Of a DNA stretch of 64,000 bases, positions 14,838 to 59,337 are shown piece by piece. The position numbers and the translations under genes are program-made. Source of the DNA: Octopus vulgaris. Taxonomy: Eukaryota. The stretch lies in contig OX597817.1 of NCBI GenBank assembly GCA_951406725.2, forward strand, positions 75,888,001 to 75,952,000, in the 5' to 3' direction. Each line of letters begins with the position of its first letter. Position 1 is the stretch's first letter. The notes under the pieces were generated by a model. The model did not search any database and was not told where the DNA came from. It saw nothing but the letters and a program-made list of their open reading frames with translations.

Positions 14838-15708
14838 CACACTCATACGTGCATACATGCACATTCATATTACCTTGTTAATGCTTTTGAACATATCTAA
14901 AGGGGAAAATATACAAACTATTTTATTAATATATTATATTTATTTTTAATATTAATATCCTTTAACCTAGTAAATACTAATAGAAGCTTTTTATTTTTGT
15001 TTACAGTATTTACTTTTAATAATATTTTTTTACCTCTAAATGCTTTGCATATTTAATTCAATAAATCACTTAACTGTAATGTTAGTTTCGTATTTGTTAT
15101 CTCTACACCTCCTATCAATATATTGAAATAATACAATTTAATTCTATTTTATTTTACTGTTAGCAAATAGTTCCGTACATTCGTCTATTTAAATATTTAG
15201 ATTTTAATGTTATTTATATTTGCTTTTGTACATCTATGCAATATGTATATATATACATATACATATATGCAATATGTATATATTTTATTTTATTCAATAT
15301 GCAAATATATCTAACTGTCGATGCGTTGTTCTGAAATACTGCTTTGCATCACTGATTAATTTTTAATCTAAAGTTTATATATTCATAGAGTTCCGTTCAA
15401 ACGTAAGAATACACTGAATGATTTTTTTAATAACTAGCAGTATCCGCTGAAATTGTACGATCTATTTTGTGGTACAGTGTTCAGCCATAAATATCTCTTA
15501 TCTTGGTAGTAATATTCTGTAATTTCTTTCATAGTCCTTTCACTAATTTTTAAGAAATCTTGTCTATTCTCTTGAGTCATGTTTTCTGCTTCTGACTCGT
15601 GCAAAAAGATTCTTGCCTATCAGCATTCATATTTTGACTCTTATCGTGATTAACAGTTCTCATTCTTTCTGTCTCAGTTCCAGTTTCACCTTTCGTTATA
15701 TGAATAAT

Positions 15709-16100
15709 CCTTTCTGCTATAGGCACAAGGCCTGAAATTTGTGTGGCCGTGGCGGTGGGGAGGACGCCACTGATTCACTGGTACTTAATATATGAACCTC
15801 AAAAAGAAGAAAGGCAAAGACAACCTCTGCGAAATTTGAACTCAGAACGTAACGGCAGACGAAATACCTATTTCTTTACTACCCACAAGGGGCTAAACAT
15901 AGAGGGGACAAACAAGGACAGACAAACGGATTAAGTCGATTATATCGACCCCAGTGCGTAACTGGTACTTAATTTATCGACCCCGAAAGGATGAAAGGCA
16001 AGTCGACCTCGGCGGAATTTGAACCCAGAACGTAACGGCAGACGAAATACCGCTAAGCATTTCGCCCGGCGTGCTAACGATTCTGCCAGCTCGCCGCCTT
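15709..16100 (-). mobile_element. SINE family A dimer (tail A unit followed by a headless tail B unit)
   Basis: Junction at 15868/15869; TSD TCGTTATATGA(A/G)TAAT at 15693-15708 and 16103-16118. Confidence 0.92.
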
Positions 16101-16621
16101 TATCGTTATATGAGTAATACGAACGCTAATAGCATGCGAACATATACACATGCTACCACCCACTCTATCACAAGCGCATGCGCACACACACATCTATTTG
16201 GCATTTATGCAATTGCGTTCGAATGCACATAAGTGTGTGTATGTGTGCGCATATCGGTAGTGTTAAATTAAATTTCTCTCTCTTTTTCTCTCTCTCTTTC
16301 TATTGCACTCACATTTATACCAACCCGTTTCCAGAAAGTAGCAGATCTTTTACATCACAGGAATCTGTCCCTAAAACTTTAATACAAGAGAAAATGTACT
16401 TTAATATTTCATTTTATTCTAGTGTTATTCGTTTGTACCCTATTGGAGTTAGGTTATTATATGAACCTAGAATACCTTATTTACTTCTGTATATTCATTA
16501 CATATTTTCTACCTATTGATTTGGTTATAATTATTTAATCATTTCAATCTCAATGGTGCTATATTTTCCACACACGCACAAACACATACATATCTTTATT
16601 ATTTATAATCACTATATATTT

Positions 16622-17031
16622 CTTTCTTTTACTTTCTTTTACTTGTTTCAGTCATTTGACTGCGGCCATGCTGGAGCACCGCCTTTAGTCGAGGAGCAAA
16701 TCGACCCCGGGCCCTATTCTTTGTAAGTACTTATTCTATCGGTCTCTTTTGCCGAACGGCTAAGTGACGGGGACGTAAACACACCAGCATCGGTTGTCAA
16801 GCAATGCTAAGGGGACAAACACAGACACACAAACATATACACACACACTTATATATATATATACATATATACGACAGGCTTCTTTCAGTTTCCGTCTACC
16901 AAATCCACTCACAAGGCATTGGTCGGCCCGGGCTATAGCAGAAGACACTTGCCCAAGATGCCACGCAGTGGGACTGAACCCGGAACCATGTGGTTGGTTA
17001 GCAAGCTACTTACCACACAGCCACTCCTGCG

Positions 17032-20095: not shown

Positions 20096-20151
20096 GATGA
20101 AATAATAATAAAAAATCCCGAGAAACGATAATATGTCACTATACTGAACCC

Positions 20152-20460
20152 TAGTGGTGGCGCAATGGCCCACTGGTTAGGACAGCGTGCTCGCGGTTTC
20201 GATTCCCATACCGGGCCTTGTGTGTGTTTATTGCGCGAAAACACCAAAAAGCTCCACGAGGCTCCGGCAGTGGGGTGGGTGGCGACCCCTGTTGTACTCT
20301 TTCGCTACAACTTTCTTTCACTCTCTCTTCCTGTTTCTTGAGTAACGCAGCGATGGGCTGGCGTCCCGTCCAGCTGGGGAGGGGGGGACACATACGCCAC
20401 AGAAACTGGGAAACCGGGCCCATGAGCCAGGCTAGGCTTGAAAAGGGCGACGTTTAACGT
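20152..20460 (+). mobile_element. tRNA-derived SINE family C with a V-domain-like segment
   Basis: A/B boxes (TGGCCCACTGG; GTTTCGATTCC), GCGATGGGCTGGCGTCCCGTCCAG resembling the V-SINE domain; 12-bp TSD TATACTGAACCC (20140-20151, 20461-20472). Confidence 0.88.
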
Positions 20461-31554: not shown

Positions 31555-32051
31555 TGCATGCATACATAATTATGTACACACACACATACAAAAACACACT
31601 TAAGTACTCACTATATGTATATGTGTGTGTGTGTGTTCGTGTGTGTGAGTGTGTGTGTGCGTGGGTGTATATATATATATATATATAAGCATATATAACA
31701 CGTGTTGCTCTTAACGCAGGTGTTTTATTCACGATACAATATATATGAATATTCATTAAAGCATAAATTTGTCTGATTCGAATCACCCATGCAGAAAAAC
31801 ACTGGAGCACTAGAATCAGCAGATTATTTAGATATCTAAATATTCTAAATGTCAAATTCTGCGGAGATTTGCGTTCTAATCATATTCTCCAAAGACGCTG
31901 ATAAAATAATTACCAGTCAATATTTAATTGTTAAAATGAGTGGTCTTCTGTGTTACAGATATCTAATTTTTTTTTTGATGTATTTTATGATGTCATTTTA
32001 ATTTCTCTCTTGAGTTGGCGTTGTCGTCAGGTTAATGGATGGCTGTGTAAA

Positions 32052-32581
32052 ATATTCCATTCTACTATAACTACAAGGCCTGAAATTTTGTGGAGGGGCA
32101 TATTCGATTACGTCAATTGGTACTTAATTTATCGACCCCGAAAGGATGAAAGGCAAAGTCGATTCGGCGGAATTTAAACTCAGGACGCAGCGGCAGACGA
32201 AATACCTATTTCTTTACTACACACAGATGACAAACAAGGACAGGCAAACGGATTAAGTCGGTTATATCGACCCCAGTGCGTAACTGGTACTTATTTAATC
32301 GACCCGGAAAGGATGAAATGCGAAGTCGACCTCGGCAGACGAAATACCTATTTCTTTACTACTCACAAGGGACTAAACATAGAGAGGACAAATAAGGACA
32401 GACAACCGGATTAAGTCGATTATATCGACCCTAGTGCGTAACTGGTACTTAATTTATCGACCCCGAAAGGATGAAAGGCAAAGTCGACCTCGGCGGAATT
32501 TGAACTCAGAACGTAACGGCAGACGAAATACGGCTACACATTTCGCCCGGCGTGCTAACGTTTCTGCCAGCTCGCCGCCTT
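32052..32581 (-). mobile_element. SINE family A trimer (tail A, tail A, tail B)
   Basis: Junctions at 32206/7 and 32348/9; TSD ATGGCTGTGTAAA at 32039-32051 and 32582-32594. Confidence 0.9.
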
Positions 32582-33176
32582 ATGGCTGTGTAAATATATT
32601 AGATGCGTACTGTGTGAAAACACTGTCGTGTGGTGTGTGTAAGTATTTGGACTAATGGCTAGTAGTGCTTGGTACACAATATTAAGGTCGTTAGTTTGAT
32701 TCTCGAACCGGACAGTATGTTGTGTCCTTCCGCATGACACTTCATTTCACGTTGCTCTTATTATTCGGCTACAAACGAGTACCCGTAGAGTAGTGATCAA
32801 AACATTTTCCCTTCACGCTTATGTTTTTTCTATGACCAAGTGGGTCACGAATGGAACAGCCGAGAGCGTGTTTATATCTGAATGTAACTACAGTTCTCTA
32901 AAGTAATTACCGAAAGCATGCTATATGTCAGCGGGTCACACTTACCCGCGAGTGACAGGTATGGTATGTGATCGAGTAAATAAATGGTGGCCTTTACTTT
33001 AGCTTCTCAATTCTTCCATTCGAATGATACGAAGGATATTGCTTTCAGCATCTGAGCTGATTAAAATAAGTTCCAGTAATATAATGGTTTGGATATGGTC
33101 GACTGTATATGCTTCCTTAAAGTTGTTATATATATATGTATATATATATATATATATATATGCACACACACACACA

Positions 33177-36985: not shown

Positions 36986-37410
36986 GAGTAGAGAAGGAAG
37001 TTTTGTCTAGTGAATGTTTCAAAAAAAGATGGGTGAATGTAGCAAGGATAGTACGTGTGAATGACGGAGCCACCTTGAGCTTAATCCTATGATCCAGAAA
37101 AATAAAGAAAAAAATGAGAGTCACTGTAATGTGTTTTTTGCATGACATTATTGCCCGAGGTTACCGTGGTCATTTCCATAGGCTTTTCTTTCCACGGATA
37201 AACCTAATCTGTTTCTCCTTTTACATTATGACATTTCTGTGATACACAATCCCTATTGATCGGCTTCTTTTATTTTTCCACGATCCCTTTTCATTGAATT
37301 TCTATTCCCCCATGTTTTTCTCTTCCCCAAAAGAAAATCTCTTATTTGTATTTTGTGTTAAGCCCTCTGTGTTCAGCTCTGAGTGGCCAATAAAGAAACA
37401 TATCTATCTA
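36986..37410 (+). mobile_element. LINE 3' end (Tx1/L1-like), second copy of 56797-57358
   Basis: Colinear homology to the 56.8-57.4 kb copy; ends AATAAAGAAACA-TATCTATC. Confidence 0.75.
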
Positions 37411-37413
37411 CAT

Positions 37414-37479
<66 letters not shown>

Positions 37480-43825: not shown

Positions 43826-45962
43826 GAAAGGTATCAATAGCGAAGGCACTAGAAGACTCCCTTGAGCCTGTACTTTGATGTAATTATGAGGTTATATCTG
43901 TATTTTGAACTATTCCTATTATTACTTCATCTTTATATTGATGCCTTATAATAGAGTTAACTTATAACTAGATATGTGGAATGCTTAACTATTTTAGAAT
44001 TAACTTTTAACGTTATAGTTTTCTTGTGCCTAAAGATTTTCTATCGTTTTTCTACGATCTATCAGCTCTTTCTGCACGACAAATTTTCGGTTTAATTTTT
44101 GTTTATATATTTTCTTTTCGTTGCAGCTGCGTGAACCAATGCAATCGATAAACTGATGAGTTAATTATCCATACATATGTTAAGGTGCAATCTAGCCGTT
44201 GCGAAATCCTCTCTCCAGTGATAAATTTCATAAGAAAGTTTTTCTCACTTTTGTGTAAATTCTTTGCCCTGTCTCACCAACTCGATTACATTTTCGCGTT
44301 CAACGCATGTCAGAAGCCACACAGCTAGTGTTTGATTTAATTATGAAATTTTATTTTAATCGATAAAAGAAACTTTAAAATATTAGCTATCAACTAAATA
44401 GAAAATGCAAAGCCTTTGATTCAATTGTTTTCTTTCTGAAACAATTTCTCCTTCGCTACAAGATATACCGTACAGATTTCCTGCATGAAACAGAATAATT
44501 GCAAAACGAAAATAGGATTATATGACGTCATTACTTCCCGAAGAACGTTAATGAAATTAAATGTTTACAACTAAAGATCAAAACTATGTCGTTGAATCTT
44601 CTTGAGAGCTTAACTCTAGTCTACGGTTGGTCACTATTATAAGAGTTATATTTGAAATTTATGAATATTTTCAGATTTCCTCGACACTAGAGACATCCTC
44701 TTTGATCTTGCAATTGTGATCAGGAAGAGAGAAAAAGAAGGAAATAATAGTTAATATGTTGTAGAATACAGGTTTAAATTAGATATTTATACTCAAGCTT
44801 AAACACTTCAAATCATTGTATAAGCTGAGGACATACAGCATTTAGTATTGTTGTGATGGTCTTGTAAGTTTGAAGTGACAGAAAGTAAAAAAGAAGAATA
44901 GTAATCTGATTGTGTGAAACGACTTTCATTCCTTTACTTTCTCAAAAATGTTTTTAAAGTTTTAACAATACTTTTCAATTTGAGCTAATTAACTCAAATG
45001 CTATTTTCTTTTACAATCTTTCAGCTACGACGTTCGTGTTTCGGTAACAATTAGAATATTGATATTGATAACGCATTTTTATTAAAGAATTGTGAACTGC
45101 GAAAATTAAAATTAATTGGTTTTTGTTAATTAGCATAATTTTTATGTGTGTTAGTTTCATAATGTAATTTGTACATAAATAATACGTTGACAGAAAAGTT
45201 AAATAAAGCGAGCATGAAAGAAGATAGAAAAATATGCGCATTTGTTGGTCCCCGACCACATGTCTTCTTCGATTTAATTACTACTATACTACTTGTCCTA
45301 ATCAATGCTTTATGTAAGTCTAAACAAGTATTAACCTTTCAATCCAACGTTAACAGTTAGTAATTCGAATTTAATTACCTACATTAGAGATCGTCAGATA
45401 ACTACAGACTCCTTAAAAAGATCAAACAGAATTGCACAGGGAGTCGCTACAATCAGTGACAAATAATGGAGAAGAGATTCCATGATATGATCTAGACAGA
45501 AATAAATAAACAGTTACATATTACAAGCAGTATATATGCATTGACAAACCGAGTCCCAAAGAGTGAACTCTGCTAATATAAGGGTGTTAATTTGAAAGTT
45601 GGATTTCGTCGAGGATATACTATAATGGTATCTGTACAATACGTTAATTCGTGTTTCTACAAATGCATACATTTATGTCTTCTATATTCTTCATATCAGC
45701 ATCAAGTCTTTACCTCAGTGTAAACAGAAATCTGCCATTCAATCTTAAGTTATAATGAGTCGCTTGGCTCAATAAGTTTAGAGCAATCATGATCATCAAA
45801 AGTCCAGTAAAACGTTAATATCGTTGAACTTAATTGATAGATTTTAATCAATTGTTACATATTAATATTTTAGATAGCTTTCCAACAACTGGCCGCTAGA
45901 ATAAAACCTCTTTAGCCATGTAAACTACTTGACAGAAGTGTAGTTTCAGTCAAGTAGTTTCT

Positions 45963-46569
45963 AAGGCGGCGATCTGGCAGAAACATTAGCGCGGCGGGCG
46001 AAATGCTCAGCGGTATTTCGTCTACCACTACGTTCTGAGTTCAAATTCCGCCGAGGTCGACTTTGCCTTTTATCCTTCCGGGGTCGATTAAATAAGTACC
46101 AGTTACGCACTGAGGTCGATATAATCGACTTAATCCCTTTGTCTGTCCTTGTTTGTCCTCTCTGTGTTTAGCCCCTTGTGGGTAGTAAAGAAATAGAAAT
46201 AGGTATTTCGTCTGCCGTTACGTTCTGAGTTCAAATTCCGCCGAGGTCGACTTTGCCTTTCATCCTTTCGAGGTCGATTAAATAAGTACCAGGTACGCGC
46301 TGGGGTCAATGTAACCGACTTATTCCGTTTGTCTGTCCTTGTTTGTCCCCTCTGTGTTTAGCCCCTTGTGCGTAGTAAAGAAATAGGTATTTCGTCTGCC
46401 GCTACGTTCTTAATTCAAATTCCGCCGAGGTCGACTTTGCATTTCATCCTTTTGGGGTCGATAAATTAAGTACCAGTTACACACTGGTGTCGATGTAATC
46501 GACTTAATCCCTTTGTCTGTCTTTGTTTGTCCCCTCTATATTTAGCCCCTTGTGGGCAATAAAGAAATT
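45963..46569 (+). mobile_element. SINE family A trimer (all tail A)
   Basis: Junctions 46201/2 and 46385/6 (184-bp period); 17-bp TSD AGAAGTGTAGTTTCAGT at 45934-45950 and 46570-46586. Confidence 0.94.
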
Positions 46570-47844
46570 AGAAGTGTAGTTTCAGTGACACTTCTATATG
46601 CAAAATTATTCCTGGTTTCGTAGCAATAGTATATACATAGAAAAGGTCTTATTCCACACTTTTCTCTCATGTCACACGATTATCCTTATAAGTCTCATAA
46701 CCTTAATACAATAAAATAACAATTGCAAAGTTGCACTGACTTAGCAGCCAAAACATAATGCAGTTCCAATATGACACATCCACGATCATATTTCTTTTAT
46801 GGTGGTATCTTAGCGAGAATTCATACAACACTAATAAACTTTGCTATCTCACAGTAAGTCCAATTCTGTTGAATATGATGTATTTTAAACGATACGCTTG
46901 AAAGAATATAAAAAAACTGCTTTTTGTATTGCAAATGAATTATTTTTAAGAAATAAAATAGCTTATCGTTCAATGAAATTAGTACCTTCAGAAAATTACG
47001 AAAGAGCTAAAATTGTTTCTGTGGTAAGATTACCTCGACAATAAGACTGTTTAAACTATAAATGTGAATGCAAATAATATCGCATAATTTATTTCATTAG
47101 TCAGAATGGTCCATTGACTGAAATTAGACGTGGATGGTCCTGAAATTAGATGTGTGCATTTTAGATTAAAGTATATTCATCGTCACTCTGTTGTCACTTT
47201 ATTAATATGCAAATCAGATATTCATTGAAGGAAACCATGATGTTCTAACGGTAGACAGTCTCACAAAGGGATTTCAGGACGCAAATTTAATTAAAACTCT
47301 TCAAAAGGAGAAAAAAGTGCAATACTAAAGAGTTAAACGTATATCATTAAGGGATATGAGTCTGCTAAACTGTATAATTACTTCGTATTGATTTCATTGT
47401 CAGATTTGCTAAATAAACGTACGACACGACTGCTTACATCGGATCAGGAAGTATGTACGTGAGATGGCCACAATTAATAATTGCTAAGAAATAGCAAGAA
47501 ACTGAAAAACGCCAAAGTTATGATATGTCTGGTACGGCAATGAATTAATGCGGTAAAATTCTACATTAGTAATGGAAGCATGGCATAGAAGGCTGAAAGA
47601 CAAATAATGGTGTTTGTTAATGCAATTTAGTCGGTGTATGTTCTAAATGAAATTAGTTAAAAGATGCAATTAATATCGTAGCTTACCACAAAAAATGTTG
47701 ATAGTAGGAAAAGGAATTGAAAGTACTAGAGAAAGAGAAGTATCATTATCAGAGTCAAGGGATGACCTTATCCAAAGTTTACTGACGTATAGGGGGTAGA
47801 GTCTCTATACATTCAGTGTAAGACCTTCTATAAATGCTAAACGT

Positions 47845-55242: not shown

Positions 55243-55730
55243 ATATTCTTTACTACTCTAATCACAAGGCTCGAAATTTTTGGAGAGGGGGCTAGTCGAT
55301 TAGATCGACTCCAGTATGCAACTGGAACTTAATTATCGACCCCGTTCGGCCGGCGAAACACAATAAATAATATTCTACAGCTGAATAAGGGAGCGGGCTG
55401 GCAGAAACGTTACCACGCCGGGCGAAATGTGTAGCCGCATTTCGTCTGCCGTTACGTTCTGAGTTCAAATTCCGCCGAGGTCGACTTTGCCTTTCACCCT
55501 TTCGAGGTTGATAAATTAAGTACCAGTTACACACTGGGGTCGATATAATCGATTTAATTCGTTTGTCTGTCCTTGTTTGTTCCCTCTGTTTAGCCCCTTG
55601 TGGGTTGTAAAGAAATAGGTATTTCGTCTGCCGATACGTTCTGAGTTCAAATTCCTCCGAGGTCAGCTTTGCCTTTCATCCTTTCCGGGTGGATTAATTA
55701 AGTACCAGTGACGCACTGGTATCGATGGTG
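55243..55730. mobile_element. SINE family A cluster: tail B fragment on minus (55243-55345) and dimer on plus (55388-55730)
   Basis: Junction GAAATA|GGTATTTC at 55617/8. Confidence 0.88.
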
Positions 55731-56796: not shown

Positions 56797-57357
56797 TGCA
56801 TCTAAAAGGATTGGAGACAAACACTTTCCTCTCTGGTCAATCTCTCATCAACTTCTTCAAGTACCACTTGAAAAGGAAAGTGAGAGTAGAGAGGCAAGTT
56901 TTGTCTAGCGAATGTTTTAAAAAAGATGGGTGAATGTAACAAGAATGGCACGTATGAATGACGAAGCCACCTTGAGCATGATCCTATGAACCCAGAAATT
57001 GAAAACAGAGAGTTGCTTATTCGCAAAAAAAAAAAAAAAAAGAAATATAACATGTGACTCCATTGACCGAGGTTACCGTGGTCTTTTCCGTAGGCTTTTC
57101 TTTCCAAGGGTAAACCTCACCTGTCCTCCTCTTTACACTTCATATTGACATTTCTGTGATAACGATCCCTATTGATCAATTTTTTTTTCCTCACCCCTTT
57201 TTTTTAACCCCCTTTTTTTTGTCCTCTTTCTCTCCTTTTACGATCCCTTTTGATCGAAACTCCCCTTCCTTTTTTTTTTTTTAAACCTTCAAAAGAAAAG
57301 CTCTACCTTGTAATTTGTTCTATCTGTGTGCAGCCCTGTGTGGCTAATAAAGAAACA

Positions 57358-57613: not shown

Positions 57614-58373
57614 CTTACCTATCTATCTAATCGTTTTTACTTGTTTCAGCTAGAGAGGTGTGCCAATGATGTGGTAGCGCCAATTTAAATACACGCACGC
57701 ACGCACAGACACAGACACAGACACACATGCACACATACACACACACACACATACACACACACACACACATACACACACACACACTCACACACACAATAGC
57801 CTTTGAAACAATGCATCGTCGGGAAAAAGGAATTTAATTTCCGAAATCTGCGTCCGAAAGAGAAAGTCGTTCGTAAATGGTAATGAAAACTATAATATGC
57901 AAATGAGAAATAATTCAACATTTTGATCGACAGCTCTGCCACTCACTATGTCTCACCATCAATCCCCCTCTCTATATATTTACCATACTCTTTGAAACTC
58001 ATCCTCTCAGTATATGTATTAATTGTCAGGCAAAGCTTTCAATTGGTTTAAGACCTCGTCTTGTAACGTTTACTTTCAATTTATAATACACAGCTTATCA
58101 CACACAAAATTCTTAGCTTCGAAATCGTGTTTTCTGATTGAGTTAAAATGATCAAACTTTAAACTTTTCTACCATTTTTCTAAAATTTATCTGGAAAAAG
58201 TGAATCACAAACTCGGATTCATCGCGAAAAAATGTATGAAAATACCAAATTTGAAAGCTTTCACTTAATTTTAAAAATTGGAAATTTGTGATCTCTCTCT
58301 CTCTCTCTCTCTCGCTCTCACTATTTGTCTATCTCTCATTTCCTCGTGGTAAACTTTCTCATGCTCTATAAAA

Positions 58374-58604
58374 GTATATATTTCTTTATTGCACACAAGG
58401 GGCTAAACATAGATGGGACAAACAAAGGAATTAAGTCGATTACATCGACATCCAGTGCGTAACTGGTACTTTATTTTATCGACACCGAAAGGTGGAAAGG
58501 TAAAGTCGACCTTGGCAGAATTTGAACTCAGAACGTAACGGCAGACGAAATACCGCTAAGCATTTCGCCCAGCGCGCTAACGTTTCTGCCAGCTCGCCGC
58601 CTTA
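58374..58604 (-). mobile_element. SINE family A monomer, tail A
   Basis: 15-bp TSD TCATGCTCTATAAAA at 58359-58373 and 58605-58619. Confidence 0.93.
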
Positions 58605-59337
58605 TCATGCTCTATAAAATTATATAGCTCATGCTGAGTCTGTGTGTGTTTGTCCCTCTGTGTGTGTGTGTTTGTGTGTGTATATGCATGTATATGTGTG
58701 TATGCATGTGTGTAAGGAATCTAAAAGAATTACTTTTATTGCATAGTTGTCTGTTATTAAACGTTTTTTCTTACAGCCCCCTGCGCACACACACGGGCTC
58801 TCACATACATACACACACTGACATTCACACGGACTCGCTTATGCGGCGTGGGGTTGTTATAGATTTAAATAACAGTTTTCGTTGTTGTTGTTGCTTGAAT
58901 CTCAGTAATGGACCACTGCATCATCATTCCATAAAAAGTGCTTTTGGGGAGAAGAATATTGGAAAACTCTAGTACATGTCAGAGTGACAAAGAAATAAGG
59001 AAGGTATCAGATGGTCGTTGACTGCTCTACAAACAACATCTAAATCTCCCTTAAGTCATCTTTTCGTATGAAAATTATTTTGAAGTTATAGACAAACGAA
59101 TTGCAGATTTAAAATTATGATTAAGAAACTTCGAAAAAAGCCTAAGTTTTAGGATTTGTTTTAATGAATAAAAAAAAAAAATTCACTATTGTTTTTAAAT
59201 TACGTTTTATTTCCTGCTAGGAAATAAATCAAGTGTGAATTGTAATGGTGATCGCCGTTTTTCAGATTTTCTCTTTTAACCTTCAAGGTTTCTCCCATCA
59301 CTTTCAAAAAATGGACTAAAACGAACGAAATAAATGA

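Follow-up and report, generated by a model that had tools for sequence, protein, structure and literature searches.

The stretch analysed here, called the window below, comprises 64,000 nucleotides (nt) from Octopus vulgaris (GenBank assembly GCA_951406725.2, contig OX597817.1, positions 75,888,001 to 75,952,000 of the forward strand) and holds four tandem arrays of a short interspersed element (SINE) whose units are joined at the same internal place. On the 233-nt unit taken as reference this main joint falls before position 50. A 14-mer spanning the joint has exactly six matches in the window, and these are the six junctions at four loci that a previous sequence-only reading had reported. 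The downstream units start at 46202, 46386 and 55618 on the forward strand and at 32348, 32206 and 15868 on the reverse strand.

The array at 45963-46569 (+) is a trimer, for which TRF gives a period of 184 nt and 3.0 copies over 46012-46573. Unit 1 (45963..46201) has a full head, a body and a tail of type A in its TAGT variant; the head carries A-box-like (45975-45984) and B-box-like (46039-46049) motifs. Units 2 (46202..46385), which begins at the GGTATTT site, and 3 (46386..46569) both comprise positions 50-233 and end in tail A, of the TAGT type in the former and of the older CAAT type in the latter. One additional GAAATA tail repeat of unit 1 stands at the joint 46201/2. Unit 2 is 8.8% apart from unit 1 and unit 3 13.5% apart from unit 2, with no rare allele in common in either pair. 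An exact 17-bp target-site duplication (TSD) encloses the trimer (45934..45950 and 46570..46586, +). It was likely left by the last and oldest unit because it begins with AGAA, to which CAAT-type tails match, and unit 3 would then be the remainder of the first element at that site. The 12 extra bases between the left TSD copy and the head (45951-45962) duplicate a portion of the TSD, the pattern that re-priming at the 5' join would leave. Contigs of seven runs were compared at two window loci, this trimer and the dimer near 15.7 kb. The trimer insertion is common to all four runs with contigs there, since these enter the element from either side, and none of them spans the array; at the dimer no contig bridges the element. 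The consensus of the contigs of four runs after the tail is GTATTT.

At 15704..16100 (-; TSD 16103-16113 / 15693-15703) lies a dimer in which a young tail-A unit (16100-15869) runs into an old tail-B one, diverged by about 23%, at position 50 of the latter. A second trimer, at 32056..32581 (-; TSD 32582-32597 / 32039-32055), has two tail-A units, the second with internal deletions, and then a unit that ends in tail B; the joints of this array are at 32349/8 and 32207/6. The claim that three arrays each lie within a single TSD thus holds for those at 46, 32 and 15.7 kb. The fourth array, at 55387..55726 (+), joins a tail-A unit at 55617/8 to a second unit broken near position 158, and a TSD looked for around it was not found. 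A lone CAAT-type tail-A copy lies at 58379..58603 (-; TSD 58605-58619 / 58359-58373).

The family was characterised in a blind sample of 120 stretches of 10 kb (1.2 Mb, or 1.264 Mb with the window). Its 222 loci in 1.2 Mb exceed the 100 copies at least that SINEBase asks of a SINE (PMC3531059), TSDs flank 20 of the 37 tail-A monomers, compared with 3 of 150 shuffled pairs, and the last 42 nt are 79-88% like the end of a long interspersed element (LINE) encoding an apurinic/apyrimidinic endonuclease (APE) and a reverse transcriptase (RT). Unit number, last tail and ages all vary, unlike in a dimeric SINE of the Alu type with its fixed pair of equal age; nor are the arrays a SINE-derived satellite, with one or two joints per array in the blind sample and 56 of 74 neighbouring units unrelated. 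Three tail types were distinguished, A (variants TAGT, TAAT, CAGT and CAAT), B and C, whose copies are respectively 5.8%, 12.4% and 17.3% diverged over positions 50-165.

The joint had been placed in a tRNA-like anticodon arm, and this stands loosely: the best of 40 alignments with 20 of the animal's own tRNA genes reaches z 4.4, these being weak gapped alignments with a gap of 17-19 nt, and ARAGORN and Rfam scans gave no match to the SINE; the SINEBase threshold is at least 60% identity over 60 nt with a tRNA, 5S or 7SL RNA. The supplementary texts searched yielded no usable consensus for the conserved central domain of the V-, Meta-, CORE- or Ceph-SINE superfamilies. The octopus tRNA-derived SINEs OK, OR1 and OR2 (Ohshima and Okada 1994) may be the same family. 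The head hairpin folds as had been claimed, with the joint site at the edge of its loop, and the fold of the whole unit is no better than that of shuffles (z -0.82). The idea that the GAAATA tail re-forms this stem with TATTTC is not needed. Among the heads of tail-A copies, one subfamily carries T45G together with G50C (36 of 40), turning a U-G pair of the hairpin into G-C, which hints that the hairpin matters; we rejected this linkage as proof by covariation, as it goes back to a single inherited event.

The fixed joint is real and genome-wide. A 26-nt sequence across it has 16,099 exact matches in the 2.8-Gb genome, against none for the reversed control, and the joint followed by the bases of older subfamilies accounts for a further 6,348. 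Tail joints reading GGTATTTT number 3,042, and 27 of 30 fetched run on into a SINE. In the blind sample the joint occurs in 27 of the 222 SINE loci (12%), once in 20 and twice in seven, and arrays of up to five or six units are found elsewhere. One four-unit array with identical flanks occurs three times (L100-L102, G000:C1:22.15-22.30 Mb) through segmental duplication and was counted once. Scoring 102 tail-A ends in the blind stretches and the window left 94 to be classed after eight without the tail motif were dropped. Forty-four of these continue into another SINE, 39 at position 50, three at position 50 followed by a deletion and two at position 17. In this sample the histogram of junction positions proposed in the sequence-only reading is not scattered, with 42 of 44 joints at position 50, and the single fixed junction that it postulated stands for this position; it had overlooked that position 17 is the place of another fixed joint, which has 1,452 exact genome matches with a search pattern that itself demands an AAT-type tail upstream.

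The units of an array differ in age in the order expected if new copies enter older ones. In 18 arrays that end in a B or C tail, the first unit is 4.2% diverged (A monomers, 4.6%) and the last 12.6% (B monomers, 12.4%; A monomers, 5.8%; p 2e-17 against A and 0.92 against B), the two being scored over different regions, each against its own monomer control. Sequential insertion had been predicted to leave the distal units older, and this is what these arrays display. Most of the B/C targets in the blind sample switch from the young to the old type right at the joint. Units with a CAAT tail are also older than those with TAGT or TAAT (5.5-6.7% against 2.7-4.6%), and four mixed arrays (L012, L093, L098 and L108) are read as an earlier CAAT insertion at 17 and a later TAGT insertion at 50.

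The two joints correspond to two short motifs of the head, GGTATTT at position 50 and AGAA at position 17, each used by its own tails: TAGT and TAAT lead to position 50, CAAT to position 17 via AGAA. The same preference is seen outside SINEs. Among 36 non-SINE ends of TAGT, TAAT, TTGT or CAGT tails, 18 continue with GGTA, seven match by 1-2 nt and 11 match nothing (mostly TATA); the GGTA-type continuations match GGTATTTCG over 4-7 nt and none is longer. Of CAAT-type ends outside SINEs, 6/14 continue with AGAA. A tail followed by GGTA and then a base other than T has 3,528 exact matches in the genome, and 18 of 30 such loci fetched have a TSD in a search anchored on the start of GGTA, a few of these TSDs being short. 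GGTA belongs to the target-site duplication, because the upstream TSD copy also carries it in 16 of the 18. The GGTA run is the sole common feature of the 18 non-SINE target contexts listed.

Three controls bear on what selects the site. The LINE tail at site-like sequence has a single match in the genome, outside a SINE, tail B at the site has two matches, and GGTA (4 nt) on the opposite strand of the SINE is a target in 235 exact matches. The tail therefore decides, and the longer match wins. As both the LINE tail and tail B shun the site, it is likely that the 3' end of the RNA, and not the nuclease alone, picks it. An endonuclease hot spot open to any tail was rejected on the near absence of these two tails from the site. 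Tail-A copies lying in the opposite strand of another SINE at a GGTAC site, which yields inverted pairs, were seen at L286, L298, L304 and L103.

Insertions caught with both heads present show the site in use. The pattern of an old head followed by a new one has 60 exact genome matches; 30 loci were taken, of which one was left out and two were identical, giving 28 distinct loci. In 21 of them the old element resumes at site 50 after the new copy, and in eight of the 21 the old head is 72-85% identical to the reference. These nested insertions duplicate positions 50 to about 62, and at L124, L142, L143, L139 and L149 the same old variant stands on both sides as TSD, a private deletion being duplicated at L139. 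Among the 27 blind arrays, two are nested in this way. In single-headed dimers the heads are more diverged than those of A monomers (97/872, 11.1%, against 134/1686, 7.9%; p 0.009 in a test that treats sites as independent), and typing the heads by position 21 gave a mixed outcome with few dimers. At L123, L127, L133, L135 and L150 and at G000:C14:84691111-84691412, heads (1 to about 62-76) are repeated before a full copy with no downstream remainder; there are up to five heads at 66-nt spacing, perhaps products of template jumps to short transcripts of the head.

The enzyme for such insertions could come from a LINE that is present in the window. A 3' fragment of L1/Tx1-like type at 56798..57356 (+) lies between (TCTA)n and (TATC)n runs, and its last 42 nt or so resemble tail A. 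The same type is found at 36986-37474 of the window and at L181, L182 and L187 as (TATC)n insertions, often in tandem, and in the 30 loci listed its 3' ends pass into sequence of the ATATC/(TATC)n type, a repeat-target preference of the Tx1 type. The genome has 4,420 exact 3' ends of this LINE. Its open reading frames ORF1 and ORF2 encode 680 and 1149 amino acids (aa), with Exo_endo_phos (APE), RVT_1 and zf-RVT domains, and the PDB structures nearest to its endonuclease are L1 endonucleases. The likeness to L1 and the microsatellite targeting suggest assignment to the Tx1 clade (PMC4494074). The LINE was probably active recently, because many intact ORF2 copies are identical over the 188 aa searched. 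We regard it as the candidate partner and likely motor of the SINE. The proposed search for a LINE sharing tail A was thus answered in part: an APE-RT LINE was found whose last 42 nt match the trimer tail at 33 of 42 positions (37 of 42 in an older relative, L039). Searching at the protein level for further LINE families yielded just one family, in identical copies, and none of the fragments of other L1/Tx1-like families inspected ends in exact tail A. One such fragment is followed by a tail-B-like end (L089:4629-5000) and another by a loosely tail-C-like end (L059); others end in (TC)n (L041) and (TTA)n (L140). Tails B and C of the SINE may derive from sister LINE families. Two further window repeats, at 16600-16800 (+), with very high contig depth, and at 20140-20330 (+), with a tRNA-like head, probably belong to other SINE families.

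We favour, as the probable origin of the arrays, recurrent insertion of the SINE into its own older copies at position 50, guided by the 3' end of its RNA, with secondary local duplication. Among the models first offered, this agrees with site-specific insertion into existing copies, for which the data now supply a targeting rule, the RNA 3' end being the same as the site; the homology-guided 5' join of that model is assumed and not seen. The SINE RNA would end in GGUA(UUU), the same letters as position 50 of older copies, so that new copies would land there. On roughly every second pass RNA polymerase III (Pol III) would terminate at the joint's TATTT, reading through on the others; ends from GGUA to GGUAUUU are suggested because the target matches span 4-7 nt. 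TATTT is a moderate Pol III terminator: in HeLa cells 42% of B2 transcripts ended at it, and at the related TCTTT transcription stops also at earlier bases (PMC8466645). An L1/Tx1-like LINE enzyme may nick and prime where the RNA end pairs, as pairing of RNA with target helps priming in SART1/R1 (PMC7265360). The cDNA would as a rule be fused to the old head, through homology, at a point that varies, leaving one head, and each insertion would remake the site and the terminator, so that chains could lengthen. Unequal exchange between units could later account for about a quarter of the neighbouring pairs. A more tentative proposal, to which we give somewhat less than an even chance, is that the heptamer GGTATTT serves at once as Pol III terminator, pairing guide and target in the SINE's own head. 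One tail lineage that once landed at the site would thereby have become self-homing, rebuilding terminator, guide and target with each insertion across tens of thousands of older copies and swapping heads and tails among subfamilies.

Several observations weigh against recurrent self-insertion. Arrays in SINE heads outnumber targets outside by 27 to 18, above the 33% share expected for a 7-mer (p 2e-4), which points to a further factor beyond the motif match behind this bias. Young-type bases after the exact joint (16,099) outnumber old-type ones (6,348), and all four window arrays, tail-B ends included, stay young-type past the last joint; such continuations need young targets, read-through donors or conversion. 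Decay of the TSDs points in the right direction and is weakly informative, with few sites (B-ended arrays 7.6%, B monomers 7.9%, A monomers 5.3%). The TATTT within the head should itself end part of the transcripts early. The candidate LINE inserts into (TATC)n, and over 42 nt its tail resembles tail A at a level of only 79-88%; the true partner may be a sister LINE family. Most arrays are single-headed, which puts weight on the presumed 5' join, and seven of the 28 doubled-head loci do not resume at site 50, so that doubled heads must arise in other ways too. Lastly, several dimers with old B or C ends have young heads (0-1 changes), and 18 of 74 neighbouring tail-A pairs, pooled from blind and targeted loci, have at least two rare alleles in common, against 1.7% between arrays.

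The young heads would also be explained by template switching, in which the RT begins on an old B, C or CAAT transcript, copies it to position 50 and jumps to the GGUAUUU end of a young RNA, the chimera then being inserted whole. This fits arrays that have just one head and an enclosing TSD, and the seven loci without resumption point to RNA-RNA jumps. It leaves unexplained, however, the TSDs starting with GGTA in unique DNA, the nested insertions in which old head and old remainder both survive, the heads that are older on average and the antisense GGTA insertions, and it requires copies decayed by up to about 25% as templates. We therefore consider it unlikely as the source of the arrays.

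The allele-sharing neighbours speak instead for an ancestral dimer or multimeric master that was retroposed whole and then extended through slippage or unequal crossing-over, with the joint simply passed on. Old-type joints do occur in runs 184 nt apart, and in the allele-sharing arrays L029, L003 and L031 the inner units are mosaics whose 5' part resembles the downstream unit and whose 3' part resembles the upstream one. Such mosaics imply unequal exchange after insertion rather than a rolled circle. Local lengthening by exchange is thus real as a secondary process, and about a quarter of the neighbouring pairs look like later local duplications of this kind, which the sequence-only reading had missed; the other 56 of 74 pairs have fewer than two rare alleles in common. 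As main source, a multimeric master is largely refuted and quite improbable: it cannot yield terminal units whose tails are TAGT, TAAT, CAAT, B and C and of differing ages, nor the nested copies flanked by a TSD at the site. The young-to-old change of base type that most B/C targets of the blind sample undergo at the joint speaks against it as well, as does a second joint with its own tail.

It is still less probable that the LINE endonuclease, a DNA hairpin or Pol III factors at the head choose the site with no part for RNA pairing. The position at the hairpin loop edge, the frequent target specificity of Tx1-clade elements (PMC4494074) and the enrichment above the motif-only expectation would fit such a choice, and these agents may add to the site bias; against it, the LINE tail and tail B are almost never at the site, CAAT tails use position 17 instead, and the 18 listed non-SINE target contexts have nothing but the GGTA run in common. 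A ligated RNA circle of about 184 nt reverse transcribed by rolling is hardly credible, in spite of the fixed unit length and of a few arrays with near-identical internal units (0.6-2.4%), as it predicts identical units of one subfamily, whereas three quarters of neighbours, those of the 46 kb trimer included, are no more closely related than copies taken from separate loci, the similar units are mosaics with alleles of the terminal unit, and last units often belong to other, older subfamilies; neither a circle nor a single master is supported.

If recurrent self-insertion is correct, a few bases at the end of its RNA set the target of a SINE independently of the target of its partner LINE, and such targeting can turn on the SINE's own family. 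It would explain directly how SINEs come to swap head and tail modules, as has long been inferred, and would provide a safe harbour of the SINE's own making, and tens of thousands of age-ordered nests would allow subfamilies to be dated in a SINE-rich genome. Automatic annotation would probably split such mosaics into many families; the annotation of O. vulgaris has 900 recently active SINE families (PMC13282606, Table 1).

No description of self-insertion of an octopus SINE was found in the open literature searched, subscription journals, Repbase and Dfam lying outside the search, and several known systems share parts of it. Squamate sSats (PMC10702118) and Dip multimers (PMC8466645) are likewise tandem SINE parts with longer terminal units, and the secondary homogenisation there resembles the quarter of allele-sharing pairs in octopus. 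The former are long, subtelomeric and formed at the DNA level and the latter consist of full-length units, and a fixed self target is absent from the covered parts of both texts. In R1Bm and SART1 (PMC7265360) a short match of the RNA 3' end to the target also improves accurate priming. These are autonomous LINEs with sequence-specific nucleases acting on ribosomal DNA or telomeres, whereas the octopus SINE is non-autonomous and follows a loose 4-7 nt rule on a self target. SINEU-3 of crocodilians (PMC4494074) strongly prefers another repeat, a Mariner transposon, which is ascribed to the Tx1-clade machinery of the Tx1-Mar LINEs that have the preference in common with it, and its tandem copies, which sandwich a TSD, are read as sequential insertions. 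In octopus the target is the SINE's own head, inner TSDs are mostly lacking, and the LINE found does not have that preference, its tail occurring at the site only in the single match mentioned above. The bivalve TSD-(SINE)n-TSD arrays (PMC11481361), also molluscan, have one full head, head-truncated repeats and one TSD. They concern about 3% of copies, their inner units are truncated at the tail as well, and they are ascribed to recombination, whereas the octopus arrays involve 27 of 222 loci, retain full tails and have their subfamilies in age order.

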